Source: an uncultured Bacteroidales bacterium
GTDB taxonomy: Bacteria; Bacteroidota; Bacteroidia; Bacteroidales; JAADJA01
DNA length: 51,297 nt
Reading direction: 5' to 3'
Assembly: GCA_964408535.1 (NCBI GenBank)
Contig: CAYOZZ010000381.1
Location: forward strand, 1-51,297
Below the pieces are notes generated by a model, which was given only the letters and a program-made list of their open reading frames with translations, was not told the origin of the DNA and did not search any database. This document shows, piece by piece, positions 6,754-51,297 of the stretch; within the stretch, counting starts at the first letter, position 1, and each line of letters opens with the position of its first letter. A program made the translations under genes and the position numbers.

Positions 6754-6754
6754 T

Positions 6755-29919: not shown

Positions 29920-29943
29920 CAGTTAATAATAAATGTGATTGTA

Positions 29944-31521
29944 ATGAAAAAGTTGCCTATTGGGATACAAACATTTAGTCAAATAATAGAAAATGAGTAT
30001 TTATATGTTGATAAGACTGGGATTGCATATGATTTGATTGAATCCGGTAAATATTATTTTCTTTCGCGCCCGCGCAGATTTGGTAAATCATTGTTTGTAG
30101 ATACTTTACAGTCGTTGTTTCAGGGTGAAAAAGAATTATTTGAAGGTTTATTTATTTTTGACAAATGGGACTGGGAAAGGAAATATCCTGTCATTAAAAT
30201 ATCTTTTGGCGGTGTGGCAATGAATGTTGAGGTTTTACGAAAAAGCATTATGCTCATACTTGAAGATAACCGGGAACGTCTCGGAGTGAAATGCAATGCA
30301 GGTCTTGATACGGGAAACTGTTTCAGCGAACTGATTAAGCTTACTCGCAAAAAATATAATGAGAATGTTGTTATTCTTGTTGATGAGTATGACCGTCCTT
30401 TGCTTGATAAAATTGATAATCCTGAAATTGCGATTGAAATCCGGGAAGTTATGAGAGACCTGTATTCCAGGATAAAGGAGAACGACAGGTACATTAAGTT
30501 TGCCTTTCTTACAGGAGTTAGTAAATTTTCAAAGGTTTCTATTTTCAGCGGGCTCAATAACCTGAAAGACATAACTCTTGATAAAAAATATGCAACTATT
30601 TGCGGTTATACTCAAAATGATATTGATACTGTTTTTGAAGGGCATTTGAATGGGGCCGATATGGAAAGGGTGAAAGAGTGGTATAACGGATATAATTTTA
30701 ACGGAGAAAATGTTTATAATCCTTTTGATATTCTCCTATTTATTGATACCGGTTTTGTTTTTAAAAATTATTGGTTTGAAACCGGAACTCCGACATTTCT
30801 GATAAAACTGATAAAAGAAAAAAAATTTTTTTTACCGCAACTTGAAAATCTCAAAGTTAATCATACCATTCTTGAGAGTTTTGATATTGATAATATAAGA
30901 ATTGAAGCGGTTTTGTTTCAATCGGGATACCTGACTTTAAATAAAGTTATTGATCTACCTTTCGGCGGTCTGGAATATCAGTTACGTATTCCCAATAAGG
31001 AGATAATGTTATCGTTAAATGAAGTATTAATTGATTTTCTAACCAATGATAATACGGCGACCCAAAAACGTACAGACCTTTTTAATGCCTTGCAAAATGG
31101 CGATTTGGAATATCTTGGGCAATCAATAGAATCGCTGTTCGTATCAATTCCTTATAACAACTACGTTAAAAATAATCTTGTACATTATGAAGGATATTAT
31201 GCAAGTGTTATTTATGCATATCTTGCTTCACTCGGGCTGCAAATAATTGCCGAAGATATCACCAATAAGGGCAGGATTGACCTGACATTGTTTGTCAGGG
31301 ACAGGAACAGGGTGATAAAGAATGTGTATGTCATTGAATTTAAAGTAGTGCCTGATAAAACAGGTAAGCAGGAAAACTCTGCATTAAAACAGATTAAAGA
31401 GAAGCAGTATCATAAAAAATATACGACAGGCTACAAATATAAAGGTCTTTACCTTGTCGGAATAGAATTCGACAGCAACGAAAAAAATATCTCATCATTT
31501 CAATGGGAAAAGGTTAACTAA
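29944..31521 (+). CDS. AAA-ATPase-like domain fused to a PD-(D/E)xK nuclease-like domain (PF09820 + PF08011-type architecture)
   Basis: About 525 aa from MKKLPIGIQTFSQIIENEYLYVDKTG. Walker A RPRRFGKS, Walker B VVILVDEYD, C-terminal GRIDL...VYVIEFK (D...ExK). Confidence 0.8.
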   Translation: MKKLPIGIQTFSQIIENEYLYVDKTGIAYDLIESGKYYFLSRPRRFGKSLFVDTLQSLFQGEKELFEGLFIFDKWDWERKYPVIKISFGGVAMNVEVLRKSIMLILEDNRERLGVKCNAGLDTGNCFSELIKLTRKKYNENVVILVDEYDRPLLDKIDNPEIAIEIREVMRDLYSRIKENDRYIKFAFLTGVSKFSKVSIFSGLNNLKDITLDKKYATICGYTQNDIDTVFEGHLNGADMERVKEWYNGYNFNGENVYNPFDILLFIDTGFVFKNYWFETGTPTFLIKLIKEKKFFLPQLENLKVNHTILESFDIDNIRIEAVLFQSGYLTLNKVIDLPFGGLEYQLRIPNKEIMLSLNEVLIDFLTNDNTATQKRTDLFNALQNGDLEYLGQSIESLFVSIPYNNYVKNNLVHYEGYYASVIYAYLASLGLQIIAEDITNKGRIDLTLFVRDRNRVIKNVYVIEFKVVPDKTGKQENSALKQIKEKQYHKKYTTGYKYKGLYLVGIEFDSNEKNISSFQWEKVN

Positions 31522-32798: not shown

Positions 32799-33620
32799 TT
32801 ATTCCACAAAAATAGTATCGGTTACAACTGAGCAGGCTGTGAAATATCCAAGTCCTCCGTTGGTGATATTGGAAGGCAAATTTCCCCTTTCTTCATCAAA
32901 TAGTGAGCCCTGCCATACGGTTTCGGCATTAAGTGCCCTGAGATATTCCGCATAATCATCGGTTAATGAATACTTTCGCTCAATTATAATACTGCCCTTT
33001 GGGAAAAATACCTCTTCTTTGTCAGGTGCGAAAAGTGCAATAATATCTAATGTTTTAAAAGTATAGTAAAACAATTTTTCAGATGTCGGTTCCCCGGGTG
33101 AATTATTCGGAAGATGCGACCAGTCAATTAATATTTCATACATATTTTGTGTCTCGGCATCATAATCCGAAGCTACCCAGCCTATTTTAAATAAGCTGTC
33201 TTTATTATCGGCAGGTGCATAAATCAATGGCGTAAGCGGTATGACAGGAACAATTTGGGTCTCTGCATTGTAGGTCTTTCCGTTATAAATTATTGAAAGA
33301 TAATATGTTTGTCCCAATGTTGCTGCAAACGAAATATCACTGAGGTAAACTCCGGGATTATCAATGCTTTCGGTACAGTCTGTAGATTGATTTCCATTGC
33401 TTAGCGATACTTCTGCACCTGTCACAGGTAAAGGTTGCTGATTTTGGGATGACATCGGCCTGGTGAGCTTAATCTCCTGGTGCCGAACCTCATTTGTTAG
33501 TATTGCCTCAACCACAATTGTGTCGGGTATGTCAATTGGAAATTCCTTGCCGGCTTTTTCTTCACAACTGCCGGACATTATCGTAATCAAAAGAATTAGT
33601 ATTGTCTTGTTTTTTATCAT
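32799..33620 (-). CDS. DUF4249-like lipoprotein
   Basis: 273 aa. Lipoprotein signal (...IMSGSC). Positioned immediately downstream of a TonB-dependent receptor, as is typical for this family. Confidence 0.7.
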   Translation of the reverse strand: MIKNKTILILLITIMSGSCEEKAGKEFPIDIPDTIVVEAILTNEVRHQEIKLTRPMSSQNQQPLPVTGAEVSLSNGNQSTDCTESIDNPGVYLSDISFAATLGQTYYLSIIYNGKTYNAETQIVPVIPLTPLIYAPADNKDSLFKIGWVASDYDAETQNMYEILIDWSHLPNNSPGEPTSEKLFYYTFKTLDIIALFAPDKEEVFFPKGSIIIERKYSLTDDYAEYLRALNAETVWQGSLFDEERGNLPSNITNGGLGYFTACSVVTDTIFVE

Positions 33621-36307: not shown

Positions 36308-37345
36308 CTAATCACACCCTTCCCCCGTAATCAATATCTTATTATCTTTTTTAACAACCGACAAATCAAAAGTTTCCGTTAAAATATTAAGTACGGCATC
36401 AAGCGATAAATTGTCGTAAACAGCTGTAAGTCTGCAATCATTCAAAGCCCCGCCGGACAATTCAATACTTACATCATAGGCTTCCGATATATCTCTGACG
36501 ACATCAGCAAGAGGGTCATCCTCAAAAATAAATTTCTTCGTTTTCCAGGCGAGATAGTTACGGCTTTTGTTCGTCTCTTTAATAAGTTCTCCCGTCGTTT
36601 TTGAGAAGACACCCCGGTCGCCCTTGGAAAGAATTATCTCTTTACCGGTTTCCGCCCTTAAGGCCACCTTGCCCGTATTAACGATAACTTCAACAAACGG
36701 ATTGTCAGGTCTTGCATCAACATTGAAAGATGTTCCGAGAACCTCAATCAGGGTATTTTCCGCTTCGATAATAAACGGCTTTTCCTCGTTTCGTTTTACT
36801 TCAAAAAAGGCTTCTCCTTTTAGCAATACTTTTCTGTTTTTTCTTCCGAATTTTTCAGGATAAGTAATCACCGAGTTTTTATTTAAAGCAACAATTGTCC
36901 CGTCGGGAAGCGTTGCCGACTTAACCGATTCCATTGCTATTACATTTTCAACACCCGGTTTTGCAATTATTCTGTAAAGAAAAAATGAAGCGGTCAGTGC
37001 AATCAGAACGATGGCTGCAATTTTCAAAATATGTGTAAATGATTTTTCCGGTGGTAGTGTCCGAACTTTTCCGGTATCTTTTTCTTCTCCGGCAAACAGA
37101 ATGTTCTCCAGTTTATGCCATTCCTTATCAATATCCGTGTCAACAACCGGTTTTGTTGTCTGTGTCAGTATCCAGGCCTGCCTGTAGCGGTTGAACAGTT
37201 TTTTATTCTCATCACCGGAAAGCACCCATTTTTCAAGTAAAGCAACCTCCTCTTTTGTTGCCTCATTTGCGAGGTATTTTCCTGTCAGTATTGAATAGTC
37301 CGTATGTTCGCCGTTATTTTTCATTGTTGTTCGTTCATTGTACAC
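36308..37345 (-). CDS. FecR-family anti-sigma factor
   Basis: 345 aa. N-terminal cytoplasmic region (LLEKWV...), a single TM (ILKIAAIVLIALTASFFLY), and a periplasmic FecR domain. An alternative start exists at 37324. Confidence 0.85.
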   Translation of the reverse strand: MYNERTTMKNNGEHTDYSILTGKYLANEATKEEVALLEKWVLSGDENKKLFNRYRQAWILTQTTKPVVDTDIDKEWHKLENILFAGEEKDTGKVRTLPPEKSFTHILKIAAIVLIALTASFFLYRIIAKPGVENVIAMESVKSATLPDGTIVALNKNSVITYPEKFGRKNRKVLLKGEAFFEVKRNEEKPFIIEAENTLIEVLGTSFNVDARPDNPFVEVIVNTGKVALRAETGKEIILSKGDRGVFSKTTGELIKETNKSRNYLAWKTKKFIFEDDPLADVVRDISEAYDVSIELSGGALNDCRLTAVYDNLSLDAVLNILTETFDLSVVKKDNKILITGEGCD

Positions 37346-37363: not shown

Positions 37364-37915
37364 TTATATTAAATATAACAAAATTAAAACATAAATATAA
37401 TCTTTCAACTCCTCCCGTAATATTTTTAATGCCTTCGACATCTGAACCTCCACAGTTTTAACTGAAATGCCCAGTTTTTCGGCAACCTCTCTATATTTCA
37501 ATTCTTCAAACCTGTTTAGCATAAAGACCTGTTTACATCTTTCGGGCAACTTGTCAAGTGCTGCCGAAATCTTTGTTTCCAGTTCTGCAACGGATATTGC
37601 ATCACTTTCATAAGCCGTTTCATAACCGGCAATATCAACATCAAGCACACTGCTTCTGAATTTCTTGTTGTCACGTATATGGTTCAGACAGCGGTTTCTA
37701 ACGGAAGTAAAAAGATATGACTTGACAGATTTTCCCGAATCAATGGTTTTTTTATTCTGCCAGAGGTTTACAAACACTTTCTGTGTTATCTCTTTTGCAG
37801 TGTCGTCGTCAAAGACATAACTCTTAGCAAAATTGCACAATTCACCGAAATACTGCCTGAACAATTGTTCGAACAGTTTTTTGTCAAGATTTGAGTATGC
37901 AATATTTTCAGCCAA
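37364..37915 (-). CDS. ECF-type RNA polymerase sigma-70 factor
   Basis: 183 aa. Region 2 (FRQYFGELCNFAKSYV) and region 4 HTH (LKYREVAEKLGISVKTVEVQMSKAL). It lies 18 nt upstream of the FecR gene. Confidence 0.9.
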   Translation of the reverse strand: MAENIAYSNLDKKLFEQLFRQYFGELCNFAKSYVFDDDTAKEITQKVFVNLWQNKKTIDSGKSVKSYLFTSVRNRCLNHIRDNKKFRSSVLDVDIAGYETAYESDAISVAELETKISAALDKLPERCKQVFMLNRFEELKYREVAEKLGISVKTVEVQMSKALKILREELKDYIYVLILLYLI

Positions 37916-38140
37916 AAGATTAAGATTTTATTCCGGTGTAAAGATAGATGTAATTTTTTAAATGTGAACCGGTATGAAAAACGAAAGAAACAAAACAATA
38001 TTTTAAAAAAGATGTATAGCCGGATTTTATTAAAAAATACTTGACTTTTGTTGTAAGTTCATATATTTTAGCACCATTAAAAATCCAAAAATCAAATTAG
38101 ACAGTTCATTATTTCTTAAACATTTAAAATCCAATGTATT

Positions 38141-41100
38141 ATGAAGCGATTGATTACTTATTTCGTTTTAAGCCTTGCCTGGATTTTAACAACCCGGACA
38201 GACTTGTCTGCCGGACAACTGTCAAACAGTTCCGACAGAATGAATTATGAAAACTTTCGGTTTGACAAAACCGGATCGAAAGAAGGAAAATTTCATCAAA
38301 ACAAACCTAAAACCAGAAACCATACACGAAACCGGAAAGATTTGTGGTTACATTCGAAAGCTGTGAAGAGACCCTACTCCGGTAATAAATCGGGATCAAA
38401 TGATACCATCCTTGCTAATTATGATTTTTATACTATCCCTGAAGCATCTTTTCTGATAGGAGGTGCGGAGCTTCCGGAGTTGCCTGCTGATTTTTTCGGA
38501 GCCGGTTCCGATCCATTCAGCGGAACCATTTATTTTGCCGGAGAAAATTCATACGGAAATATTGTTCCCTATCCCGATTTTGAAGTGGACAGAATGGAAA
38601 ATGCCTATTTTTCGACTCCGTATCCGTCAACTGACAATGTCGAAATATCTGTTTATGATATGTCTGTGATATCCACTGCCCCTATTACAGTTACATATAA
38701 TAACGGGCAATACAGCGAACAATGGAATGTGGAGATGTATTATTATACAAAGGAAACAAAAGCGGGAGACTCAGTCAGTATTACTAAAACGGACGAAACG
38801 GGTGGATACTTTAGTTACGGACCTATAAGGATTCAACCGTATTTCTCTTTTTGGAATGAAAATGGATTAATAGACTGGGATACCGGTGACAGTATTCCTC
38901 CGATAGTCTATTATTCTGTTAACGATTTAGATTGGTCTCATTCACCTATCGGTCAGGATTTTAATCCTTCGGATGATGATACACTGCATATGAATTCAAC
39001 AGCCGGGGAGTCATTTTTTGACCTGTTTCCTTTAATGTTAAGGTATGAAGATTTTACCGTTTATGCCGATGATGCAGGTAATGTTTCAGGTAGCGGCTCA
39101 GGATTTAATAATGGTGAATGGTACTATTATCCCGGGTTGAATTTGTGGATAACCTGGTTTTATGATCACCAGCTGGATATGGACAGGGTTAAGGAATACT
39201 ATATTGATTTGTCTGTAAGTTCCACAGGAACTCCCTCTAATGCAGAGTTTTATCTTGGTTGGGCAACACCGGAATGGACCAATTTCGGCGGAGTACCGGA
39301 TGAGCCTCCGTTACCGCAGTATCTGCCCAATCCGCAGGAGGAAGAAACTAATATAGCCCTTTTCGATTCGTTTTTATCCGGGGAAATAGACGGTACGGTT
39401 TATCCTTACATTGACTACCAGATAGCAGAATATAATCCTCAATGGGTATGTATAGCGGTAAGAGGAGAAAATTTCGGGGCAGAATACGGCTATTCCGAAC
39501 ATATATGTTTTGATCCCGGTTGGGATAATGATGCGTTTGACTGGGGAGATGCACCTGACCCGGCATATCCGACACTTGCAGTAAACAATGGTGCCCGTAA
39601 TAGAATTTTTATTCAGGAATGGGATGATCCTCTTGCCTTAGGTGACGATGTTGACGGGGAGCCGGACGGACAACCGGATGCCGTTGCCTTAGGTGATGAT
39701 TACAACGGTTTGGACGATGAGAACGGATTAATTGAAATTTCCGAATTAGTACAGGGAAGTGAGGCTTCGATGACTGTTAGTTCTAATCGAACAGGAGGAT
39801 ATTTTAATGCCTGGCTTGATTTTAATGCCGACGGCGACTGGGATGATGAAAACGAACATATTTTTATCAATGAACAGATATGGGACAGTCCGGTTGTTCT
39901 GAGCTTTGATGTGCCTTTTGAAGCAGTGCCCGGACAAACAATGCCCCGCCTGCGGTACAGCTCTTTTGCAGGCTCAGGATATTCAGGCCCTGCCCTTGAC
40001 GGTGAAGTGGAAGACTATGCTGTTAATTTGGAGGCGTTCGGAAATAAATTGGAACAATTACCGGATTCTACATTAGCCGGTTATGAGGCTCATGATTACA
40101 ATAGTGGAGGTGTTTACTCTGTTTTATACGTAGCTGACGACTGGGAATGTGAAGGCGGCTGGGTTAACAAAATAGAATGGTGGGGCTATTACCCAATGTA
40201 TCAAGGAGTTGAGTTGAGAGGCTCAGGAATAGACCATTTTAATGTCAGGATACTATATCATTACCCTGAAGACTGTACACCTGCTAACTGGGAATTATAT
40301 ACAATGGATATTCCTTTCGATTCGGTATATGAAACAGCAACCGGATGGACAAATAATTTAAACAATAATGTTTATCATTACGAATGTAACCTGGCCGAGC
40401 CTTTTATACAGCATCAGGGAGAAAAATACTGGCTTGCAATATCTGCAATTTCAAACAACCCTGATGATCCGGTGCTTTGGAGTTGGCAGGAATCGGCAAA
40501 CCTGCAGGAACCGTCATTTTGCGGCGGTCGGTACAAAGAGTGGCCTAACGGACAATGGGATGAAATCGTCAGGGGGGAATGGCCTGTTTTATATCCCGAT
40601 TATGCTTTTGTGATACATTCCATGGCACCTCAACCTGCCGATTTTGGTGATGCGCCGGATAATGAAGACGATGATTATCAGGTAATCTTGTCGGATTACG
40701 GAGCCGTTCATATAATTGATAATGCCGTATATCTCGGTTCAACGGTGGATGCAGAGCCTGACGGTCAGCCTGATAATAATGCTCTTGGTGACGACAACTC
40801 CGGAACAGACGATGAAGACGGTGTCGTATTTCTCACACCTCTCATAGCCGGTAATATTGCAACAATACAGGTCACAGCTTCTGTTAATGGTTACCTGAAT
40901 GCCTGGGCCGATTTTGCACATTATCAATCGTGGGAAGATCAACAGTTGCTTGACGACTATCTGCTCAATCAAGGCGTTAATGTAATCTCTTTCCCGGTTC
41001 CTTTCAATGCTGTAGCTGGAAATACATATTTCAGGTTCAGATTCTCGACAGTACCGGGACTTGAAGAGTACGGTCAGGCACCTGACGGCGAAGTGGAGGA

Positions 41101-43570
41101 CTATATGGCTGAGGTAACCATTGAGGATAATAAATGGTTACAACCGCCATCCGAAAATCTCTCAGGTAAACCTGCACACGATTATTATGTATATGACAAC
41201 GGACCTGTTTATACCTATAATCAATTGGCTGACGATTGGATTTGTATGGGAGGAAATGTTATCACTGTTAAATGGTGGGGTTCTTATGATATTGACGAAA
41301 ATACGGGGCAGGAAATACGCGGTTCGGGAATTAATTATTGGCATTTAGGTATTAACCTCAATAACGACCAGTATAATGAACCTTCTTCAAGTGAGGAATG
41401 GAGCGCCGATGTGCCGTTTTCACAAATTCAGGAGATTAATACGGGATTTGTCAATTCAAGCGGTGCGGCAATATATGAATATAGTTACGATTTGCCTGTA
41501 CCGTTTGCCCAGATAGCAGGTAATCATTACTGGTTCACTATCGTGGCATTTTGCAATGATGCTGCAGATCCGGCACACTGGAATTGGCAATTGTCATCTT
41601 GCGGCGATATTCGCTTGAATCCTGCAATGTTTTTCTACTATGATGATCCGTCTTGGTATTTACTGTTTTACAATAATGCATATGTGGATCTGGCATTTGA
41701 GATTTTTTCCGATTCTTACACCGGACTTGACTATGGTGATGCCCCGGATATCTATGCTACACTATTTGAGGATGACGGTGCGGCTCATGTCATTGATACT
41801 ACACTTTACCTCGGTGATAAGATTGACGCCGAAGCTGACGGCCAACCCGGAACTTTTGCACTCGGAGACGACCAGAACGGGATTGATGATGAAGACGGTA
41901 TAACTTTTCCTTCATTGTACCGTGGTGCTAATGTAACTTTTACGGTTAAGGCTTCGGCACAGGGTTATTTAAATGCCTGGATTGATTTTGACGGCAACGG
42001 TTCCTGGGAAGAGGGTGATGAACACATATTCGTTGACGAACCGTTAGATGCAGGTTTTAATTATATTTCGGGATATATTCCTGAGGGTGCGGATGCCGGA
42101 TATACATTCGCGAGATTCAGGTTCAGTACCGCCACAGGACTGGAACCCACAGGTATTGCACCTGACGGTGAAGTGGAAGATTATCGTGTTTATATTGAAT
42201 CCGAACCTCCGTTTAAATGGGAACAACCTCCTGAAACGGAGTTCTATGCCCTCCAGGTGAATGCGGCACCGGGTTATTTGCTCGCCGACGACTTTGTTTG
42301 TGACAAGACCGGACCTTTGACCGGAATAAGTATTTACGGCAGTTGGCTGAATAATGACCCTCCGGCAGGTGGTGTTGGAGATGCTGTGTTCACTCTTGCC
42401 ATTCATGATGCAATACCTAACGGTGAAGGAACAATGCCAGGAAACGTGCTCTGGACTCATACTTATCAACCAGGTGAATTCGAATATCAATTTATTATTT
42501 ACGAACAAAACTTCGATTGGCAGAATCCTGACGGAAGCGGTTATTTGGTTTCACCAAATATGGCTTGCATAAGATATGATTTCGAAATTCCAGAAGGCGA
42601 TTTCAAACAGGAAGGGACTCCATATCTACCGAAAAAATATTGGCTTACTCTTCAGGTTTCATCCGGCACTAATTATCTGTTCGGCTGGAACAGCACTTAT
42701 CATGATGAAAAGATAGGCGTTACGAGTTCTGGTAACGGTATGTGGACGACAGGTACCGAACCTTACAACGGAATTTGGGATTCTGTATTTTATGCCAACG
42801 GCCATCCGTATGAGGGTGACCCGGTAGGTTTTGCCTTTGATATAAAAGGGCTGGAAGACCCGTATTTGTTAATAGATTTGCAAGTGGTACCGGAATTTGC
42901 AAGTAATGAGTATAAAGGGAAAGGTAATCCCGACTTTTCGGAAACTGTAATCCCGTTACATCAGCCTTTTGACGGTAATCCGGGAGCAAGGTGGTACTAT
43001 GATGGAGATGAGCAGGTTGAGTATATCCCGTATGCGGGATTTACTTTGGACTGGATATTAGTTGAGTTACGAGATGCTGAATCTGCAGCCGACGCGACCG
43101 ATGCAACTGTTATAGGAAGAGTGCCTGCATTTGTGGATATGGACGGTGATGTTTTCAGCATTAATAATGAGAGTTATTTGAAAATTTACTGTAATCCGGT
43201 TAATATACCGTATATAGCGGTTTGGCAAAGAAATCACCTCGGTATATTATCTTCCGGACCGGTTTATTGGAACGGAGTGGAATATGAATACGACTTCACA
43301 ACAGGACCGGAATCTGCCTATGGGGGTACGGAGGCTTTGAAAAACTTCGGTCAGTCAACTTTCGGTTGGGATATATGGGGTATGTATGGCGGTGATGCCA
43401 ATGGAGACGGTGTTGTTGATATCCAAAATGATCTTCAGACCTGGAATTTGCAATCGGGAGAACACGGTTATCTTGAAGCTGATGTAAATCTTGATTCGGA
43501 AGTTAATAACAAGGATAAAGACGATGTGATTATTGAAAATCAGGGTAAGAGTTGCCTTATTCCTCAATAA
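38141..43570 (+). CDS. Giant secreted protein: 3 x (GEVED-type domain + unassigned WxQPP/ADDW-C module) with a dockerin-like C-terminus and no T9SS sorting domain
   Basis: 1809 aa with a signal peptide. Three D[WFY]GDAPD...GEVEDY modules (nt 39536-40024, 40640-41110, 41729-42190). Each is followed by a module of about 195-213 aa starting K[LW][EL]Q[LP]P (nt 40046-40630, 41129-41710, 42212-42850). The C-terminal GDANGDGVVDIQND...ADVNLDSEVNNKDKD (nt 43388-43531) resembles paired dockerin Ca-binding loops. Confidence 0.85.
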   Translation: MKRLITYFVLSLAWILTTRTDLSAGQLSNSSDRMNYENFRFDKTGSKEGKFHQNKPKTRNHTRNRKDLWLHSKAVKRPYSGNKSGSNDTILANYDFYTIPEASFLIGGAELPELPADFFGAGSDPFSGTIYFAGENSYGNIVPYPDFEVDRMENAYFSTPYPSTDNVEISVYDMSVISTAPITVTYNNGQYSEQWNVEMYYYTKETKAGDSVSITKTDETGGYFSYGPIRIQPYFSFWNENGLIDWDTGDSIPPIVYYSVNDLDWSHSPIGQDFNPSDDDTLHMNSTAGESFFDLFPLMLRYEDFTVYADDAGNVSGSGSGFNNGEWYYYPGLNLWITWFYDHQLDMDRVKEYYIDLSVSSTGTPSNAEFYLGWATPEWTNFGGVPDEPPLPQYLPNPQEEETNIALFDSFLSGEIDGTVYPYIDYQIAEYNPQWVCIAVRGENFGAEYGYSEHICFDPGWDNDAFDWGDAPDPAYPTLAVNNGARNRIFIQEWDDPLALGDDVDGEPDGQPDAVALGDDYNGLDDENGLIEISELVQGSEASMTVSSNRTGGYFNAWLDFNADGDWDDENEHIFINEQIWDSPVVLSFDVPFEAVPGQTMPRLRYSSFAGSGYSGPALDGEVEDYAVNLEAFGNKLEQLPDSTLAGYEAHDYNSGGVYSVLYVADDWECEGGWVNKIEWWGYYPMYQGVELRGSGIDHFNVRILYHYPEDCTPANWELYTMDIPFDSVYETATGWTNNLNNNVYHYECNLAEPFIQHQGEKYWLAISAISNNPDDPVLWSWQESANLQEPSFCGGRYKEWPNGQWDEIVRGEWPVLYPDYAFVIHSMAPQPADFGDAPDNEDDDYQVILSDYGAVHIIDNAVYLGSTVDAEPDGQPDNNALGDDNSGTDDEDGVVFLTPLIAGNIATIQVTASVNGYLNAWADFAHYQSWEDQQLLDDYLLNQGVNVISFPVPFNAVAGNTYFRFRFSTVPGLEEYGQAPDGEVEDYMAEVTIEDNKWLQPPSENLSGKPAHDYYVYDNGPVYTYNQLADDWICMGGNVITVKWWGSYDIDENTGQEIRGSGINYWHLGINLNNDQYNEPSSSEEWSADVPFSQIQEINTGFVNSSGAAIYEYSYDLPVPFAQIAGNHYWFTIVAFCNDAADPAHWNWQLSSCGDIRLNPAMFFYYDDPSWYLLFYNNAYVDLAFEIFSDSYTGLDYGDAPDIYATLFEDDGAAHVIDTTLYLGDKIDAEADGQPGTFALGDDQNGIDDEDGITFPSLYRGANVTFTVKASAQGYLNAWIDFDGNGSWEEGDEHIFVDEPLDAGFNYISGYIPEGADAGYTFARFRFSTATGLEPTGIAPDGEVEDYRVYIESEPPFKWEQPPETEFYALQVNAAPGYLLADDFVCDKTGPLTGISIYGSWLNNDPPAGGVGDAVFTLAIHDAIPNGEGTMPGNVLWTHTYQPGEFEYQFIIYEQNFDWQNPDGSGYLVSPNMACIRYDFEIPEGDFKQEGTPYLPKKYWLTLQVSSGTNYLFGWNSTYHDEKIGVTSSGNGMWTTGTEPYNGIWDSVFYANGHPYEGDPVGFAFDIKGLEDPYLLIDLQVVPEFASNEYKGKGNPDFSETVIPLHQPFDGNPGARWYYDGDEQVEYIPYAGFTLDWILVELRDAESAADATDATVIGRVPAFVDMDGDVFSINNESYLKIYCNPVNIPYIAVWQRNHLGILSSGPVYWNGVEYEYDFTTGPESAYGGTEALKNFGQSTFGWDIWGMYGGDANGDGVVDIQNDLQTWNLQSGEHGYLEADVNLDSEVNNKDKDDVIIENQGKSCLIPQ

Positions 43571-43596
43571 TTTGGAATATTTGATTTATTTATTAA

Positions 43597-43634
43597 CCCC
43601 GGTAACCGGAAAGATTACGGTGCCGGGGTTTTTG
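43597..43634 (+). terminator. Rho-independent terminator after the 1809-aa gene
   Basis: GC-rich stem CCCCGGTAACCG / CGGTGCCGGGG (one bulge, one G-U pair) followed by TTTTT. Confidence 0.75.
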
Positions 43635-43873
43635 TTTGCTTTGCACACGGTATAAATATTGTGTAAATTCAACCTGCCTTATGCAATAATAGTTTAATTA
43701 ACTAATGGATTAATCGGAATAACCCAGGTTTAATGCAATTAACTTTTAACCTTTCCGGAATTTTAAACCCTTCTGAATCCTTTGTAGAAAGCGTAGTTGC
43801 ACTTTTCCGATTATGCTATTGCATAATTCGGGTTTAAAAAAACTTATTAACATTTAACTTTTACATAAATAAA

Positions 43874-43952
43874 TAATATTATATTTGGCCGCTAAAGTCC
43901 TATTTTAATATTATTGAGAATTCTCAGATTTGTTTAATTAAATATTTCCATT
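43874..43952 (+). promoter_or_regulatory. Promoter plus conserved leader (copy A) of the 1846-aa T9SS gene
   Basis: -7 box TATATTTG at 43880-43887. The block TTCTCAGATTTGTTTAATTAAATAT at 43921-43945 recurs, nearly identical, at 49831-49857. Confidence 0.55.
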
Positions 43953-46900
43953 ATGAAACGACTATTACTTTTAATTACATTTGTCAGTGTTTTTGTGCTG
44001 ACAGATAATGTGCAAGCTCAAAAGAGCAAAGTTGTACATCCGACAAAGGTGACAACGGCAATTTATTTTGATGAAATACCCTCTTTAAAGGATTTACCTC
44101 CGGTTGACGATCAATATTACATTGATAACTGGGGAAAATCTGTTGCTGAAGGAGCAGAACATGAGAGTGAAGAGGCACCTAATTATTCCAACTGGAAAGA
44201 TGAAGGTCCTGATCCTGTTTGGCAAAAAGAAAACGGATGGCTGCAAAGTCCAAAAGCATTAATTCAGAATTTTGCAGGACAAAGCAGCCCGTATTTACCA
44301 TCCGATTGTAATGGTACTGTAGGCCCGAATCATTTTATGCAAACTGTAAATACAACTTATGCTATTTGGGATAAGGCAGGGAATCAGGTAGTTGCACCAA
44401 CGGCTATGAATACTCTGTTTTCCGGCGTAGCAGGTTCGGGAAATAATGACGGAGACCCTTTGATATTATTTGATGAACAGGCCGATAAATGGGTAGCAAT
44501 AGAGTTTTCACTGGATGCATATCTGCATGGAGGGACCTATGATTATATGTTATTTGCAGTATCACAGACAAATGACCCGACAGGTGCCTGGTGGCGCTGG
44601 TCCTTTATTATGAACGGATTACCTGACTATGAAAAGGTTGGTATATGGCATGATGGTTATTATATGGGTACAAATTTAGGTTCAACATCTTCATCCGGAG
44701 ATGATGTCTATGTTTTTGAAAGAAGCGTAATGATTACCGGTGGTGCAAATCCACAGCAGGTTCAGTTTCATAACCCAAACAGGCCAAATAATGGTTTTCA
44801 TTGTATTATGCCCCTTGATGCAGACGGAGCAGCTCCTCCAAGCAGTTCACCCGGCCAATTCATAACAATAAATGATGATGCCTGGGGCGGTAGTGATGAA
44901 TTATGGATTTATGAATGTAATGTTGACTGGACAACACCTTCAAATTCGACTTTTTCAAGAACACAACAGATTTCCGTACCTGCATTTGATTCGCAATTCA
45001 ATTCCTGGGGAACGGGGGATATTGCACAATCCGGAACAAGCCAGCTTGTAGATGCTCAACCTTATGTTCTGATGGTTCGCGGGCAATATAAGAATTTTGG
45101 AACAGCGCAATCAATCGTATGCCTTCATACTGTTGATGTGGACGGAACAAATCATGCAGGTGAGCGGTGGTATGAATTGGAAAAAACTTCCCAAACAGAT
45201 CCTACCTGGTCCATAAGACAATCAGGAACTTATGCTCCTGATGCCAATAGCCGGTGGATGGGGAGTATAGCAATAAATGATAATCATGAAATAGCAATGG
45301 GTTATAGTGTTTCCGGTTCTTCAATGAGTCCGAATATCAGATATTGCGGTCAATCGGCATCAGGTAATGCTTCTGCAACAGGTGTAATGGATATTGCAGA
45401 ATCAGCAGATTTGGTTTCTTCACCACAGTCTCAGGGTTCATCCAACAGATGGGGAGATTATTCCTTGATGACGGTTGACCCCACCGATGGGATTACGTTT
45501 TGGTACACTGATGAATATTATAATAGCGGTAAAAAAACCCGGATATTAAGTTTTACAATAGGTTCCTCCGTGCTGACAGCTCAGTTTAGCGGTACTCCGA
45601 CATCAGTGGATGTGGGAAATTCCGTTACTTTTACTGATGCTTCCTACGGCCCGAACCCGATAACATCCTGGAACTGGAGTTTCCCCGGAGGGACACCTTC
45701 AAGTTACAGCGGTCAAAATCCTCCACCGATTACTTACAATACAGTAGGAACTTATAATGTTACTTTGACTGTTGGTGACGGTTCGTCAACGGATGTGGAG
45801 ACTAAAACGAATTACATAAATGTTATTAACTGTACTGTTAGCTCGTATCCTTGGTCCGAAGGCTTTGAAAATGGAGGAAATATACCGGATTGCTGGTCGA
45901 ATGAATATGTGACCGATACTCAGGATTGGGCTTATCAGGCCGGCGGCCACAGTGGAAATCCTTCAGGAGCTCACACAGGTAGTTATAATGCTTATTTATA
46001 CAATGGTTCAACAACAGCCAATGTAACAAAACTTGTAACACCACAACTGGATATGTCAGGTTTATCATCTGCAACTTTAACATTCTGGCATACCCAGGCA
46101 TTATGGTCACCTGATCAGGATGAGTTAAGAATTTATTATAAATCTTCTTCAGGAGGTTCCTGGACCTTATTAGCAGAATATACAAATAACATAACATCCT
46201 GGACACAGGAAACAATAAACCTACCCGGATTGAGTGGAGATTATTATATCGCATTTGAGGGAACTGCAAAATATGGGCATGGAGTTTGCGTTGATGATGT
46301 TTATGTGGACGGCGTGGCCGGTGGTTCGCCTCCGGTTGCAGATTTCTCTGCCGATGACGTTACGCCGGCTGTCGGCCAAACTGTAACTTTTACTGACCTC
46401 TCATCAGATTCTCCCACATCTTGGTCATGGAGTTTTTCTCCGGCTACTATTACTTATGTAGGCGGTACATCTTCTTCATCACAAAACCCGCAGGTTACTT
46501 TTGATGCCACCGGTACTTATTCGGTTACTTTAACGGCAACTAATGCTTATGGAAGTGATGATGAGGTGAAAACAAATTACATCACAGCCGGTTCTTCCTG
46601 TCCTCCTGTTACCTCTTTTCCATATACCCAGGATTTTGATTCATGGACGACAAGCTCACCCGCATATCAGTGTACTGCCGACGGAAGTGTTGCTTTGCAA
46701 GATTGCTGGACAAATGTAACCGGCGATGATTTAGATTGGGATATTTTATCAGGGGCGACCGCCTCAGGTAGTACGGGTCCCTCATCAGATCATACGTCAG
46801 GCTCGGGAAATTATTTATATACCGAATCATCTTCCTGTAATTCAAAAACAGGATATATAACGAGTCCTGTTTTTGATTTGAGTTCTTTTTCAAGTGCATC

Positions 46901-49493
46901 ATTAACTTTCTGGTATAATATGTATGGTTCAACAATGGGTACGATGTCTGTTCAGATATCTGTTGACGGAGGTTCTACATGGTCATCCGATGAATGGAGT
47001 TTAAGTGGAGATCAAGGTAGCTCCTGGCAACTTGCAAACGTTTCATTGAATTCTTATTTATCTGCAAATACTGTAGTTCGTTTTACAGGTTTTACCGGTA
47101 CATCATATACATCTGATATGGCAATTGACGATATAACTGTTAATGCATCTTCAAGTGGCCCGGTTAATGATAATTGTTCCGGTGCCATTGCTATTAATGA
47201 AGTTACCGATTACCCGTTTAATACAAGCAGTGCTACGGCAAGCGGAGCTAATCTTACTTGTGTTTACGGCTCACAGGTGGATTTATGGTATGCTTACACT
47301 GCAACATTTACGGGTGATGCCAGATTTGATTTATGTGGTAGTGGTTATGATACAGGTCTTGGTATTTGGGATGCCTGCGGAGGAACACAACTGGCTTGTA
47401 ACGATGATGACTGTGGTTTGCAGTCGGGGATTACTATGGCTGTAACAAGTGGTACAACTTACTATGTTCAGGTAACCGGATATAGTGGTGCAACAGGTTC
47501 CGGTGATTTGACAATCCGCCCGGTTAATGATAATTGTTCCGGTGCTATTGCAATAAATGAAGTTGTTGATCTTCCGTTTAATACAAGTGCTGCCACAGCC
47601 AGCGGTGTACAACCGAGTTGCGGCGGTAGTTCTACTCCTCCCGTTGATCTTTGGTATGCTTATACGGCAACAATTACCGGAAATGCGACTTTCGATTTAT
47701 GCGGAAGTTCTTTTGATACAAGATTAACAATTTGGGATGCCTGCGGAGGAACACAACTGGCTTGTAACGATGATGACTGTGGATTGCAATCAAGTATCTC
47801 AATGGCAGTTACAAGTGGAACAACTTATTATGTACAGGTTGGTGGATATAATTCGAATAAGGGTAACGGTGATTTGACTATTCAAGTTGTTGTTCCCGGT
47901 CTTTGGACCGGTGCAACATCGAATGACTGGGGCGTAGGTGGTAACTGGGACGATAGTAATGTTCCGCTTGCTTCGACAGATGTTTTAATCCCGTCATCAC
48001 CTTCCGGAGGTAATTATCCCGAGACGAACTCAGGTGCAGGTGCCGAGTGTGCAAATCTTACAATTGAAGCCGGAGCACATCTTTTCATTCCGTCGAATAA
48101 TTCACTAACAGTTAACGGTACTTTAACTAACAGTGCCGGTACTTCAGGGTTGATTATCGAATCGGATGCAACTGGAACCGGTTCTTTGATTCATAATACT
48201 GCCGGAGTTGATGCTACGGTTGAAAGATATCTAACCGATGCAAGATGGCATTTTATCGGAATGCCTGTAAGCAGTGCTGTTGCAGGGGTATTTCACTTAC
48301 CTTCCGGCCATTCGGATATCTATCTGCGAACTCACATTGAAGCATCCAATACTTGGGACAATTGGATAGTACCTGTAACAACTCCTTTACTTCTTGGTCG
48401 TGGATATGAAACCTGGGTAGGAACACCGGGTGGTTTTAGCCAGCCCGAAACAATTGAGTTTGAAGGTGCTTTGAATACAGGTGATTATACTACCGGTACC
48501 GGAGGCTTTTACGGATTGCAATATACAACAGGGCATGGATTAAATATGATTTCCAATCCTTATCCTTCAGCTCTTGAAGCTGATATTGATACCTGGTCAA
48601 AGTCGAATATTGACAACTCTGTTTGGATTTGGTCTGATTCGGACGGTAATTATGTGTATTGGAACGGTACTGACGGCACAAACAGTAACGGCTGGGGAAC
48701 TATGACAGGAGGTGTTATTCCTGAAATGCAGGGATTCTTTGTTTTGGCTAACGGTGCTAATCCCTCGCTAACTATTCCTCAAAGCGGCAGAATTCATAGC
48801 AACCAGGCTTATTACAAAGATTCTTATGTTCCTGAAAATACATTAAGACTTGAAGTTACAGGTAATGATTATAAGGATGTTGCTTTTGTTTCATTTAATG
48901 AGTCGGCTACCGGAGAGTATGACAACAATCTTGATGTTCAAAAGCTTTTCGGTTTGGATGAAGCACCGCAACTCTATTCTGTAATTCCAAACAAACTCCT
49001 TTCTATTAACTCGCTTCCCGAACTGACCGAATCGAAAGTCGTTCAGCTCGGGTTTGAGTGCGGAGTTAACGGGCAATTTACATTTACTGCCGGTGATATT
49101 GAAAGTTTTACCGCTTATACTCCTATTTATCTTGAAGATACAAAAGAGGGTATCATTCGTAAATTAAATGATAATCCGGTTTATACCTTCAATCATAGCC
49201 CGTTGGATGATAATAATCGTTTTATCCTTCATTTCGGTGAGGTTAACGGTGTTGGAGATATCTCAACGGGAGGCATTAAGGTGTATTCAAACAAAAATAC
49301 GGTTTATGTACAGAAGCCGGCCGATTTTAACGGTATTGTATTTATCTACGATATGCTCGGCCAGGAGATAATCAGCCGTAAAGCCAATGGCGAAGGACTG
49401 ATGACAATTCCCGTAACAAACGGAACAGGTTATTACGTTGTAAAAGTTCAGTCGGATAATAATTTGATTACACAAAAAGTGTTTATTTACTAA
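43953..49493 (+). CDS. Giant multidomain T9SS cargo protein (unassigned N-terminal domain, 2 PKD-like, 2 MAM/jelly-roll-like and 2 Cys-rich PPC-like modules, shared C-terminal module, T9SS sorting domain)
   Basis: 1846 aa with a signal peptide. PKD-like repeats at about nt 45590-45830 and 46340-46590. MAM-like modules (CWSNEY...VCVDDVYV; CWTNVTGDDLDWD...MAIDDITV). Tandem PVNDNC...GDLTI modules. C-terminal IVFIYDMLGQEI...GYYVVKVQSDNNLITQKVFIY. Confidence 0.9.
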   Translation: MKRLLLLITFVSVFVLTDNVQAQKSKVVHPTKVTTAIYFDEIPSLKDLPPVDDQYYIDNWGKSVAEGAEHESEEAPNYSNWKDEGPDPVWQKENGWLQSPKALIQNFAGQSSPYLPSDCNGTVGPNHFMQTVNTTYAIWDKAGNQVVAPTAMNTLFSGVAGSGNNDGDPLILFDEQADKWVAIEFSLDAYLHGGTYDYMLFAVSQTNDPTGAWWRWSFIMNGLPDYEKVGIWHDGYYMGTNLGSTSSSGDDVYVFERSVMITGGANPQQVQFHNPNRPNNGFHCIMPLDADGAAPPSSSPGQFITINDDAWGGSDELWIYECNVDWTTPSNSTFSRTQQISVPAFDSQFNSWGTGDIAQSGTSQLVDAQPYVLMVRGQYKNFGTAQSIVCLHTVDVDGTNHAGERWYELEKTSQTDPTWSIRQSGTYAPDANSRWMGSIAINDNHEIAMGYSVSGSSMSPNIRYCGQSASGNASATGVMDIAESADLVSSPQSQGSSNRWGDYSLMTVDPTDGITFWYTDEYYNSGKKTRILSFTIGSSVLTAQFSGTPTSVDVGNSVTFTDASYGPNPITSWNWSFPGGTPSSYSGQNPPPITYNTVGTYNVTLTVGDGSSTDVETKTNYINVINCTVSSYPWSEGFENGGNIPDCWSNEYVTDTQDWAYQAGGHSGNPSGAHTGSYNAYLYNGSTTANVTKLVTPQLDMSGLSSATLTFWHTQALWSPDQDELRIYYKSSSGGSWTLLAEYTNNITSWTQETINLPGLSGDYYIAFEGTAKYGHGVCVDDVYVDGVAGGSPPVADFSADDVTPAVGQTVTFTDLSSDSPTSWSWSFSPATITYVGGTSSSSQNPQVTFDATGTYSVTLTATNAYGSDDEVKTNYITAGSSCPPVTSFPYTQDFDSWTTSSPAYQCTADGSVALQDCWTNVTGDDLDWDILSGATASGSTGPSSDHTSGSGNYLYTESSSCNSKTGYITSPVFDLSSFSSASLTFWYNMYGSTMGTMSVQISVDGGSTWSSDEWSLSGDQGSSWQLANVSLNSYLSANTVVRFTGFTGTSYTSDMAIDDITVNASSSGPVNDNCSGAIAINEVTDYPFNTSSATASGANLTCVYGSQVDLWYAYTATFTGDARFDLCGSGYDTGLGIWDACGGTQLACNDDDCGLQSGITMAVTSGTTYYVQVTGYSGATGSGDLTIRPVNDNCSGAIAINEVVDLPFNTSAATASGVQPSCGGSSTPPVDLWYAYTATITGNATFDLCGSSFDTRLTIWDACGGTQLACNDDDCGLQSSISMAVTSGTTYYVQVGGYNSNKGNGDLTIQVVVPGLWTGATSNDWGVGGNWDDSNVPLASTDVLIPSSPSGGNYPETNSGAGAECANLTIEAGAHLFIPSNNSLTVNGTLTNSAGTSGLIIESDATGTGSLIHNTAGVDATVERYLTDARWHFIGMPVSSAVAGVFHLPSGHSDIYLRTHIEASNTWDNWIVPVTTPLLLGRGYETWVGTPGGFSQPETIEFEGALNTGDYTTGTGGFYGLQYTTGHGLNMISNPYPSALEADIDTWSKSNIDNSVWIWSDSDGNYVYWNGTDGTNSNGWGTMTGGVIPEMQGFFVLANGANPSLTIPQSGRIHSNQAYYKDSYVPENTLRLEVTGNDYKDVAFVSFNESATGEYDNNLDVQKLFGLDEAPQLYSVIPNKLLSINSLPELTESKVVQLGFECGVNGQFTFTAGDIESFTAYTPIYLEDTKEGIIRKLNDNPVYTFNHSPLDDNNRFILHFGEVNGVGDISTGGIKVYSNKNTVYVQKPADFNGIVFIYDMLGQEIISRKANGEGLMTIPVTNGTGYYVVKVQSDNNLITQKVFIY
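47160..47885 (+). repeat. In-frame tandem duplication (360 + 366 nt) encoding two Cys-rich PPC-like modules
   Basis: Copy A is 47160-47519 and copy B is 47520-47885. A 53-nt stretch is identical at 47364-47416 and 47730-47782, and the first 28 nt or so are also identical. The rest is diverged. Confidence 0.9.
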
Positions 49494-49560
49494 TTCCTAA
49501 CAGATTACTCAGTAAAGCTGTTTGGAAGCAATTAATAAATTGTTTTAGTTTCATGATGAT

Positions 49561-49592
49561 AAAAGCCCTCCATAGTCAGGAGGGCTTTTTTT
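49561..49592 (+). terminator. Rho-independent terminator after the 1846-aa gene
   Basis: AAAAGCCCTCC-ATAGTCA-GGAGGGCTTTTTTT: a perfect 8-bp GC-rich stem plus a T run. Confidence 0.85.
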
Positions 49593-49608
49593 ATAAAGAT
49601 TATTCAAT

Positions 49609-49672
49609 CGTCATTCTGAGCGAAGTCGGGTCATTTTGAGCGAAGTCGAAGAATGATACTATGCGAAGTCGA
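49609..49672. repeat. Short degenerate tandem/palindromic repeats built on GCGAAGTCG
   Basis: GTCATTCTGAGCGAAGTCGG, GTCATTTTGAGCGAAGTCGAAGAATGA and TGCGAAGTCGAAAATAC. The middle unit folds as TCATTTT...AAGAATGA. Confidence 0.6.
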
Positions 49673-49773
49673 AAATACATTTTACTATCAATCAGGTCAC
49701 AAATTCGTTTGGTAAGTTACTATTTAGAGTTTGTTTTTAAAAAAATAATACTCTTGTTGGATTAATAAAGAAT

Positions 49774-49864
49774 TTTTATTAAATTTGGCGCTTCAAAACC
49801 CCGGTATAATATTTATTGTTTATATTCAGATTCTCATATTTGTTTAATTAAAAATATTGATACT
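49774..49864 (+). promoter_or_regulatory. Promoter plus conserved leader (copy B) of the BNR-repeat gene
   Basis: -7 box TAAATTTG at 49780-49787. The block TTCTCATATTTGTTTAATTAAAAATAT at 49831-49857 is homologous to 43921-43945. The TTGGC(C)GCT that follows the -7 box is also shared. Confidence 0.55.
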
Positions 49865-51297
49865 ATGAAACGTTTTTTACTTTTTGTTTTATTGTTTGCT
49901 GCCTCGGGTATTTTATCATCTCAGGCTTGGATACAGAACCTGCCACAGGATAAGGTTCAAAATAATAAACTTACTTTTTATGATATTCAGAAAGCATTCG
50001 ATGAATATTGGGCACCGTACAATGTTGAATACGGGTATTATGATGTAAATGGTGAGAAGATTAAGGCTCCCGGATGGAAGCAATTTAAACGTTGGGAATG
50101 GTATTGGGAAGACCGTGTTGATCCAGGGACAGGAAAGTTTCCCGAGACAACAGCTGCCGATGAATTCCAGAAATATATAAAACAATACGGTGGTAGTATT
50201 AAAAGTCCGGCAGGAAACTGGACAAGTCTTGGACCTTCGAGTTCAACAGGAGGATATCATGGGGTTGGAAGAATCAACTGTATTGCATTCAGACCCGGTT
50301 CAACAAATATTTTTTATATAGGTTCTCCAAGCGGGGGGTTATGGAAAACAACCGACGGAGGAGCTAACTGGACAGTTTTGACTGATAATAATATGGTTCT
50401 TGGGGTTAGTGATATTATTGTAATTCCGGGACCATTTCAGGATAAGATTTACATTGCAACAGGCGATAAGGACGGGGGTAGCGGATGGGCACTCGGTGGA
50501 GGACAAAGTCATGATAATAATAGTATTGGAGTACTTGTCTCAACTGACGGAGGAGCTACATGGAACACAACCGGTCTTTCCTGGACAGCAAGCCAGAAAA
50601 GAACAATCAGCAGGCTTATACTTGATCCTAACAGCGGTAACCAAACACTTTATGCTGCGACATCAATTGGTATTTACAAGACTACTGATGGTGGTGCAAA
50701 CTGGAATTTACAGCAGGCGGGCACTTTCATTGATATGGAAATGAACCCGAATAACAGCAATATTTTATATGCATCGACAAAAGACTATTGGGGTACGCCT
50801 CAAATTTTTGTTACAACAAATGGAGGCGGAACTTGGACAGCAAATAAAACATTTGCTGCGACGGATTACAGGGTTGACCTTGCGGTTACAGCTGCAAACA
50901 ATAACTATGTTTATGCAATTGTGGCAAACAGGAACGGTGGATTGACCAGTATTGAACGTTCAACAAATTCGGGGAGTTCTTTTAGCTCTGTATATACCGA
51001 TACCGGATCCGGCTCCTGGTTGTTGGGATATTTTTGTGACGGAACCGGTGCTTCCAATTCCGGGCAGGGTGGTTACGATCTTTGTATTGCTGCTGATCCT
51101 ACAAATGCAAATACCGTTTTTATAGGTGGTGTTAATACCTGGAAATCAACTAACGGAGGTGTCTCTTGGAGTATAAGTAATATGTGGACAAGCAGTGGTA
51201 CATATAATTCTTGCGGTGCTCCAGTTGTACATGCTGATAAACATTTTCTTGCATTCCAAAATGCTACTTCAACATTGTTTGAATGTAATGACGGAGG
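49865..51297 (+). CDS. Secreted BNR/Asp-box repeat (sortilin/Vps10-like beta-propeller) protein; 3' end truncated by the window
   Basis: Absent from the ORF track because it has no stop. I translated it by hand from the ATG at 49865 to the window end without meeting a stop codon. Signal peptide MKRFLLFVLLFAASGILSSQA. Repeated Asp-boxes: WKTTDGGANW, VSTDGGATW, YKTTDGGANW, TTNGGGTW, KSTNGGVSW. Confidence 0.85.
   Translation, partial: MKRFLLFVLLFAASGILSSQAWIQNLPQDKVQNNKLTFYDIQKAFDEYWAPYNVEYGYYDVNGEKIKAPGWKQFKRWEWYWEDRVDPGTGKFPETTAADEFQKYIKQYGGSIKSPAGNWTSLGPSSSTGGYHGVGRINCIAFRPGSTNIFYIGSPSGGLWKTTDGGANWTVLTDNNMVLGVSDIIVIPGPFQDKIYIATGDKDGGSGWALGGGQSHDNNSIGVLVSTDGGATWNTTGLSWTASQKRTISRLILDPNSGNQTLYAATSIGIYKTTDGGANWNLQQAGTFIDMEMNPNNSNILYASTKDYWGTPQIFVTTNGGGTWTANKTFAATDYRVDLAVTAANNNYVYAIVANRNGGLTSIERSTNSGSSFSSVYTDTGSGSWLLGYFCDGTGASNSGQGGYDLCIAADPTNANTVFIGGVNTWKSTNGGVSWSISNMWTSSGTYNSCGAPVVHADKHFLAFQNATSTLFECNDG

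Follow-up and report, generated by a model that had tools for sequence, protein, structure and literature searches.

What is the function of a dockerin-like tail at the end of a giant exported protein, when the next gene encodes a protein that ends in an ordinary type IX secretion system (T9SS) sorting domain? This question is raised by a contig of 51,297 nucleotides from an uncultured Bacteroidales bacterium (CAYOZZ010000381.1 of assembly GCA_964408535.1), hereafter called the window, meaning the whole stretch of DNA that was analysed. Towards its end, three consecutive genes on the plus strand, here called genes 1, 2 and 3, encode proteins of 1809, 1846 and at least 477 amino acids (aa). These open reading frames (ORFs) are present as described in an initial annotation of the window, and the Sec-type signal peptides reported there for all three (MKRL.../MKRF... 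starts) can be read from the sequence, being called by eye and not by a predictor. The same annotation proposed that the protein of gene 1 is captured by a T9SS-anchored scaffold, with a cohesin-like receptor in the first 540 aa of the gene 2 product or elsewhere. The analysis presented here places the tail in a large, unannotated family of C-terminal modules, and links this family to T9SS-anchored cohesin proteins; the family and the link are the more interesting outcome. The explanation that we favour, with confidence that is about evenly balanced, is that the module is a calcium-dependent docking unit onto cohesin scaffolds, and that genes 2 and 3 do not encode its receptor. The features of gene 1 are as follows.

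38141..43570, plus strand: gene 1 (1809 aa), with signal peptide, N-terminal region of ~440 aa, three GEVED+DUF7901 units and C-terminal module
39536..42850, plus strand: three tandem GEVED+DUF7901 units of ~362 aa each (aa 466-832, 833-1195 and 1196-1570)
42851..43567, plus strand: conserved C-terminal module of gene 1, comprising a beta domain and a dockerin-like tail (family hidden Markov model (HMM), E=1.5e-104)
43382..43567, plus strand: dockerin-like tail of gene 1 (protein end ...CLIPQ)
43394-43429, plus strand: EF-hand loop 1 of the tail, in which position 12 is Asn, not Asp, and position 13 is D
43481-43516, plus strand: EF-hand loop 2 of the tail, canonical

The tail is not an isolated element. 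Homologs of the last 229 aa of gene 1 show that it is the end of a larger conserved C-terminal block of ~230 aa, in which a beta domain, recognizable by PLxQPY, W.Y.G.E, VDWVLVELRDA and HRNHLG motifs, is followed by a duplicated loop region and the conserved end NxGxxSQVP. AlphaFold2 (AF2) models the beta core of this module with a predicted local distance difference test (pLDDT) score of 70-90; a fold search of the beta domain (~150 aa) against the PDB gave no significant neighbour (best E=0.45), and no model in Pfam or NCBIfam matched the module. The rest of gene 1 comprises three copies each of PF20009 (GEVED) and PF25470 (DUF7901), with GEVED motifs at aa 621, 983 and 1343, in units that are also seen as DNA repeats (D3-D5), preceded by the N-terminal region of ~440 aa, to which Pfam gave no match. 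A sequence search of the PDB with the N-terminal 840 aa, as well as an exact look-up of genes 1 and 2 in a public assembly index, returned nothing. Neither Pfam nor NCBIfam detected a T9SS sorting domain of type A, B or C in gene 1. Just past the signal peptide, aa 31-87 (window 38231-38400) form a strongly basic, low-complexity stretch, KFHQNKPKTRNHTRNRKDLWLHSKAVKRPYSGNK.

The initial annotation had described the end of gene 1 as dockerin-like, and this description holds. The tail contains two EF-hand-type loops, DANGDGVVDIQN and DVNLDSEVNNKD, and an internal two-fold repeat is typical of dockerins. In the tail profile of the family, built from 117 members, two loops spaced 29 residues apart each carry D1, N/D3, D/N5 and D12 (98-99%) and continue with K13 and W17. 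Loop 1 departs from this pattern in gene 1 and its ortholog, where position 12 is N or T and position 13 is D; the two-loop feature of dockerins is thus complete in the family profile and only partial in gene 1, where loop 2 is canonical. When family profiles were compared with PDB sequences, 13 of 14 and 20 of 21 matches were dockerins of types I-III, with a best E of ~0.003. The tail of gene 1 by itself gave weak dockerin matches only (2VN5_B, E=0.036), and the E-values of all these searches lie at 0.0026-0.7. The Pfam model Dockerin_1 (PF00404, threshold 22.9 bits) did not match the last 229 aa of gene 1 at E<=1, and the best family member, P0005, scored 13.3 bits. The conserved loops suggest that the tail may bind calcium.

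The module is found in a very large number of proteins. An HMM search of 1.84 billion representative proteins returned 15,864 clusters at E<=1e-3, including 6,875 at E<=1e-30. GTDB species genomes, which were scanned with a narrowed alignment, the first being too diverse, contain at least 570 copies, nearly all in metagenome-assembled genomes (MAGs) of Bacteroidales and a few in MAGs labelled Chlorobiota; among the best 80 GTDB genome matches, up to 7 copies occur per genome, and up to 5 within 20 kb. The module is nearly always C-terminal: it ends no more than 3 aa from the stop codon in 105 of 123 ORFs, and no more than 15 aa from it in 132 of 149 top representatives. The carrier proteins are 214 to 3523 aa long, and a signal peptide is obvious in 62 of the 87 complete ORFs, with a lipoprotein-like one in a single case. 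Their cargo domains include PKD, CUB, GEVED, BACON, MAM, BNR, PAD_porph, CBM20/48 and peptidases of families M14, C10, S8, C1 and M1, which is the repertoire typical of T9SS substrates. In public databases these proteins are named after their cargo only, or are called "hypothetical". Several members carry two, three or five tandem copies of the whole module (P0135, P0136, P0137, P0138 and P0199).

Other observations concern the smallest carriers and the neighbouring genes. Minimal proteins of ~296 aa, consisting of a signal peptide, ~60 aa and the module, make up 25 members in 16 genomes (e.g., L040:9695-10582, L021:9743-10633 and L049:9698-10588), and could be competitors or caps for a receptor. 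Clustering of the neighbours of 79 module loci revealed no universal partner gene and no PorP/SprF-like gene; the only recurrent neighbour is a tetratricopeptide repeat (TPR) protein of ~647 aa, encoded directly downstream of module genes in 7 genomes (e.g., L002:2006-3946 and L001:11319-13262).

In related genomes, cohesins are found in the company of the module. Pfam cohesins occur in 3 of 68 scanned module proteins, namely two of 795 aa with three cohesins and Big_2, and one of 1149 aa with four. In two different MAGs, the gene immediately upstream of the three-cohesin module gene encodes a protein of 1789 aa, which has a signal peptide and a beta-helix, matches Dockerin_1 weakly, and carries one cohesin (47-56 bits; cutoff 24.1) and a type A T9SS C-terminal domain (CTD; TIGR04183, 38.8 bits); on the downstream side lies a gene for a BNR protein with the module at its end. 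The same scaffold-like arrangement, broken by frameshifts, was found at two further loci (the last two of the following list).

L028:2789-12778: scaffold-like three-gene locus in another Bacteroidales MAG, with genes at 2789-8155, 8207-10591 and 10832-12778
L029:2792-13126: scaffold-like three-gene locus in another Bacteroidales MAG
L085:1-7236: scaffold-like three-gene locus in another Bacteroidales MAG, frameshift-broken
L086:4204-12108: scaffold-like three-gene locus in another Bacteroidales MAG, frameshift-broken

In their layout, the two intact loci correspond to a scaffold for anchoring, a second one acting as adaptor, and subunits docked on them, with the T9SS as the anchor and with binding between the parts being predicted from their domains. 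At all four loci, a cohesin scaffold with a T9SS CTD shares its genome with module proteins; no such scaffold was found in the 51-kb window. A homolog search with the cohesin alignment yielded 14 matches, which were mostly fragmentary and provide no measure of how frequent T9SS-anchored cohesins are. Since proteins that combine cohesins with T9SS tails are encoded beside module genes, a T9SS-anchored cohesin-dockerin display system is plausible for the module family. The general idea of tethering on a T9SS-anchored scaffold, put forward in the initial annotation, thereby gains indirect support from related genomes, whereas gene 2 as the receptor does not, as shown below.

The explanation that we favour may be set out as follows. 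The protein of gene 1 would be a Sec-exported, adhesin-like giant whose last ~230 residues form a two-part module, the beta domain and the EF-hand tail being analogous to the X-module-dockerin dyads of cellulosomes. In environmental Bacteroidales, this module takes the place of the T9SS CTD on the same kinds of cargo, such as propeller adhesins, PKD/CUB/GEVED proteins, peptidases, PAD and amylase-type carbohydrate-binding modules (CBMs). Its tail would dock in a calcium-dependent and non-covalent manner on cohesins of scaffolds encoded elsewhere in the genome, at least one of which would be held at the cell surface through a type A T9SS tail of its own; in the source organism, a cohesin gene would accordingly be expected outside the window, and the protein of gene 1 would be displayed at the surface. 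Several observations speak against this explanation. The likeness of the tail to true dockerins is marginal (best E ~0.003), no family member tested attains the gathering score of Dockerin_1, the AF2 model of the tail is of low confidence (pLDDT ~32), and the key position 12 in loop 1 of gene 1 is occupied by Asn in place of Asp. Furthermore, no cohesin was detected by HMM or hhalign within the window, cohesin-bearing members are few (~5 of 123 module proteins), and the passage of a protein without a CTD through the outer membrane is unexplained.

The alternative that survives best, albeit an unlikely one, takes the module for a domain of lectin-like or envelope-binding type, dependent on calcium, which would retain the protein on lipopolysaccharide, capsule or a polysaccharide substrate and would have no protein receptor. 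A conserved beta domain of ~150 aa with a fold lacking known relatives would suit such a role, as would the tandem copies, which are also seen in carbohydrate-binding modules, and non-cellulosomal dockerin-like modules unaccompanied by cohesins are known in many phyla (Peer et al. 2009, cited through PMC6487960 and PMC8542988). Nevertheless, the fold search recovered no significant lectin or CBM match, and a lectin-like domain would leave the repeated fusion to, and adjacency with, true cohesins unexplained.

A further and somewhat less likely alternative is that the module serves as a C-terminal signal for secretion or sorting, either as a new class of T9SS CTD or for another outer-membrane export route, and has no cohesin partner. 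Its evaluation requires a comparison with gene 2, whose features are given here.

43953..49493, plus strand: gene 2 (1846 aa), with beta-propeller (aa 1-540), PKD, MAM, PKD, MAM and two GBD_T9SS_assoc domains
49281-49487, plus strand: type A T9SS CTD of gene 2 (aa 1777-1845), preceded by a pre-CTD domain (aa 1622-1761), which an unassigned region separates from the GBD_T9SS_assoc domains

The type A CTD that had been assigned to the 1846-aa protein is borne out by NCBIfam (TIGR04183, 24.3 bits against a cutoff of 23), although its score with Pfam PF18962 (20.7-22.2 bits) lies under the gathering score of 27. The propeller family to which gene 2 belongs has more than 1000 proteins and normally ends in PF18962; in three loci (L045, L025 and L084) a propeller of this type ends in the module instead. 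In addition, the pre-CTD domain of gene 2 (140 aa) is 43% identical to the domain that stands directly before the module in P0008. The module thus occupies the position of the T9SS tail on homologous cargo, which is what a sorting signal would do; its location almost always at the extreme C-terminus, with the conserved end NxGxxSQVP, the many copies per genome, and the lack of a cohesin gene near most module genes also fit such a signal. However, the terminal 60 aa are EF-hand/dockerin-like and do not resemble the beta-sandwich of known CTDs, and cohesins are fused to or encoded beside the module in several genomes. Moreover, in a few proteins the module is internal, with other domains and then a normal T9SS CTD behind it (L044 and L078), which, together with the proteins that have 2-5 tandem copies, argues for a binding unit rather than an export signal. 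Three individual proteins are of interest in this context. Internal modules followed by a Fib_succ_major domain are found in L050:6503-11251 and in L078:5894-13228, the latter of which also has the T9SS CTD; the protein of L050 begins with six partial cohesin-like repeats; and in P0137 the five module copies are followed by a T9SS CTD-like tail.

The docking explanation, in turn, has to account for export. Module proteins have a Sec signal peptide and lack a T9SS tail, so they have no known route across the outer membrane. It is conceivable, if rather improbable, that they hitchhike, docking in the periplasm on cohesin-bearing T9SS substrates and being exported as their passengers.

The search for a cohesin fold in the first 540 aa of gene 2, the site proposed in the initial annotation for the receptor, led to a different fold. 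The AF2 model of this region is a beta-propeller (pLDDT 86), for which the PDB offers as nearest structures sialidases, GH43 enzymes and Sema domains, at TM-scores that are low (0.3-0.4). Cohesins (PF00963) are nine-stranded jelly-rolls of ~140 aa, and Pfam did not detect one in it. A cohesin HMM built from Bacteroidales domains matched no ORF of the 51-kb window at E<1, and hhalign comparison of the unassigned segments of genes 1-3 with the cohesin alignment gave probabilities of <1%. A cohesin identity of the domain is ruled out by these results. Since members of this propeller family carry the module themselves in the three loci mentioned above, the family is to be regarded as cargo rather than as a receptor; a gene 2-like propeller is present in 8 of the 79 module loci.

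With regard to gene order, scanning metagenomes with gene 1 recovered only the same organism (L082; 99% identity over 6.8 kb), so that the order can be compared in a single relative, the metagenome contig L083. There the succession of gene 1 and gene 2 is kept, with identities of 66-80% and 89%, respectively; the conservation of the gene cluster that the initial annotation called for is to this extent observed for the first two genes. The conserved order is the one point in favour of the idea that the gene 2 domain, or gene 3, is a cohesin-like receptor and that genes 1-3 constitute an island dedicated to tethering, an idea made most improbable by the propeller fold, the fusion of that propeller to the module, the lack of any cohesin signal, the terminators between the genes (see below) and the rarity of such propellers at module loci. 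Genes 1-3 are best seen as adjacent, paralog-rich surface-protein genes. The domains listed in the initial annotation were recovered by Pfam in the case of GEVED, PKD, MAM and BNR, while the "PPC-like" domain turned out to be PF23759 (GBD_T9SS_assoc). Its statement that only the first gene lacks a sorting domain is correct for genes 1 and 2; the C-terminus of gene 3 lies beyond the window, so that the plural "T9SS-anchored giants" holds for gene 2 only.

49865..51297, plus strand: gene 3 (at least 477 aa), with signal peptide and BNR/Sortilin-Vps10-type propeller (Pfam), cut by the window end

The transcription signals of the three genes lead to a similar conclusion, and the relevant elements are listed below.

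43595..43640, plus strand: terminator-like hairpin and U-run after gene 1 (-22.7 kcal/mol, z=-3.7)
43880..43887, plus strand: TATATTTG, TAnnTTTG box upstream of gene 2, putative promoter element
43920..43945, plus strand: 26-nt leader motif, copy 1, before gene 2 and 8 nt ahead of its ATG
49560..49592, plus strand: terminator-like hairpin and U-run after gene 2 (-20.6 kcal/mol, z=-5.9)
49780..49787, plus strand: TAAATTTG, TAnnTTTG box upstream of gene 3, putative promoter element
49830..49855, plus strand: 26-nt leader motif, copy 2, before gene 3 and 8 nt ahead of its ATG

Genes 2 and 3 do share a duplicated leader and a putative promoter box, as had been suggested: the 26-nt leader motif ATTCTCAKATTTGTTTAATTAAAWAT is present exactly twice in the window (chance expectation, 0), and each copy has a TAnnTTTG box ~40 nt upstream. 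TAnnTTTG is the -7 promoter consensus of Bacteroidetes. Both the motif and the box are kept before the gene 2 ortholog of L083, and they were not found in 83 other loci. The two intergenic hairpins, which had been missed by a simple terminator scanner, were confirmed by folding. Strong terminator hairpins and promoter-like boxes of their own indicate three separate transcription units and not an operon. Genes 2 and 3 would therefore be ordinary T9SS-type surface proteins in units separate from gene 1, and not its receptor, and their shared leader may represent either a lineage-specific common expression signal or a duplication. An Rfam scan of the intergenic regions detected no known RNA family. 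A tandem repeat, two copies of GTCATTYTGAGCGAAGTCG and a partial third, is located at 49609-49672 of the window, between the terminator of gene 2 and the promoter-like box of gene 3.

On the other side of gene 1, four genes of a putative regulatory unit are transcribed in the opposite direction.

37364..37915, minus strand: extracytoplasmic function (ECF) sigma factor, divergent from gene 1 (Pfam Sigma70_r2, r4_2 and Sigma70_ECF)
36308..37345, minus strand: FecR-type anti-sigma factor (Pfam FecR and FecR_C)
33664..36279, minus strand: TonB-dependent receptor of transducer type, with N-terminal STN-like extension (CarboxypepD_reg PF13715, Plug PF07715)
32799..33620, minus strand: DUF4249 protein, at the end of the divergent ECF/FecR/TonB unit (Pfam PF14054, E=6e-23)

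The divergently adjacent ECF/anti-sigma/TonB-transducer unit of the initial annotation is confirmed by Pfam, beside gene 1. Regions r2 and r4 of sigma70, FecR and a TonB-dependent receptor with an STN domain are the components of a transducer unit, the STN domain being weak (21 bits against 28.4 in Pfam). A unit of this type lies near a module gene in just 1 of the 79 module loci (L046), and no regulatory link is claimed. In that locus, which belongs to a MAG labelled Chlorobiota, close homologs of the ECF sigma factor, FecR, TonB receptor and DUF4249 protein of the window are encoded in the same order (L046:15139-20583), 4.5 kb from the module-bearing gene, the sole such case among the 79. 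The remainder of the 51-kb window contains housekeeping genes, such as those for Kdo transferase, nucleotide-sugar enzymes, acyl-CoA carboxylase, PGK and Wza/Wzc. A gene at 29917-31521, flanked by a PFK gene on one side and an ORF of 800 aa on the other, encodes a predicted AAA-ATPase_like protein with a PD-(D/E)XK nuclease domain (PDDEXK_9) and has no connection with the module.

How does this system compare with those already described? The statement that no described system has such a composition was too strong, since a similar system has been inferred for Ca. Stygibacter (Cloacimonadota), where peptidases and glycoside hydrolases that carry dockerins accompany a scaffoldin with tandem cohesins and a T9SS CTD (Williams et al. 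2021, PMC8542988). Both systems comprise signal-peptide proteins with a C-terminal dockerin or, in the present case, a dockerin-like tail, a cohesin scaffold with a T9SS CTD, and peptidase cargo, and both alike are inferred from sequence alone. Ca. Stygibacter, however, belongs to another phylum, its dockerins are found by standard models, and its multi-cohesin scaffoldin itself carries the CTD, whereas in the Bacteroidales locus the CTD belongs to the beta-helix protein, which has one cohesin, and the protein with three cohesins ends in the module. No paper on the beta-domain-plus-dockerin-like module or on the Bacteroidales scaffold locus was found in the open-access literature, most subscription journals being outside the search.

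Among classical systems, the closest parallels are the type I dockerins and X-module-dockerin dyads of Clostridia (e.g., CipA X-Doc, PDB 2B59, and the Cel5A dockerin, PDB 2VN5), which, like the module, are C-terminal. They share with it a duplicated 12-residue calcium-loop-plus-helix, a beta module fixed immediately upstream, and the presence in many secreted proteins per genome; the combination of cohesins with the tail in one protein likewise recalls the adaptor scaffoldins of cellulosomes. In contrast to Clostridial dockerins, the module stays under the Dockerin_1 threshold, has a DK...W signature in both repeats, and ends in NxGxxSQVP. No relation of its beta domain to X modules was detected, its hosts are diderm Bacteroidales, and its cargo consists mostly of adhesin-like proteins and peptidases, not cellulases. 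T9SS type A cargo (TIGR04183 / PF18962) includes gene 2, and on homologous cargo families the place of its CTD is held by the module seen in gene 1, but gene 1 matches no type A, B or C model and has an EF-hand-like tail. Dockerins outside classical cellulosomes are also carried by rumen Bacteroidetes, where they are canonical, type I-like, and thought to have been acquired laterally from Firmicutes (Bensoussan et al. 2017, PMC6487960). The module stands apart from these as a separate family of very large size that has a fixed beta domain of its own.

If the module docks on cohesins, it would constitute a new domain family for annotation, and a display route would be assigned to more than 15,000 protein clusters that are now named by their N-terminal cargo or as hypothetical. 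Docking would also raise the question of how proteins that lack a T9SS tail pass through the outer membrane; should hitchhiking be the answer, there would be a passenger branch of type IX secretion serving thousands of environmental Bacteroidales proteins. Cohesin-dockerin assembly would then reach beyond the cellulosomes of Firmicutes to the peptidases and adhesins of diderm bacteria, and environmental Bacteroidales would possess a second, non-covalent mode of surface display, layered over type IX secretion.

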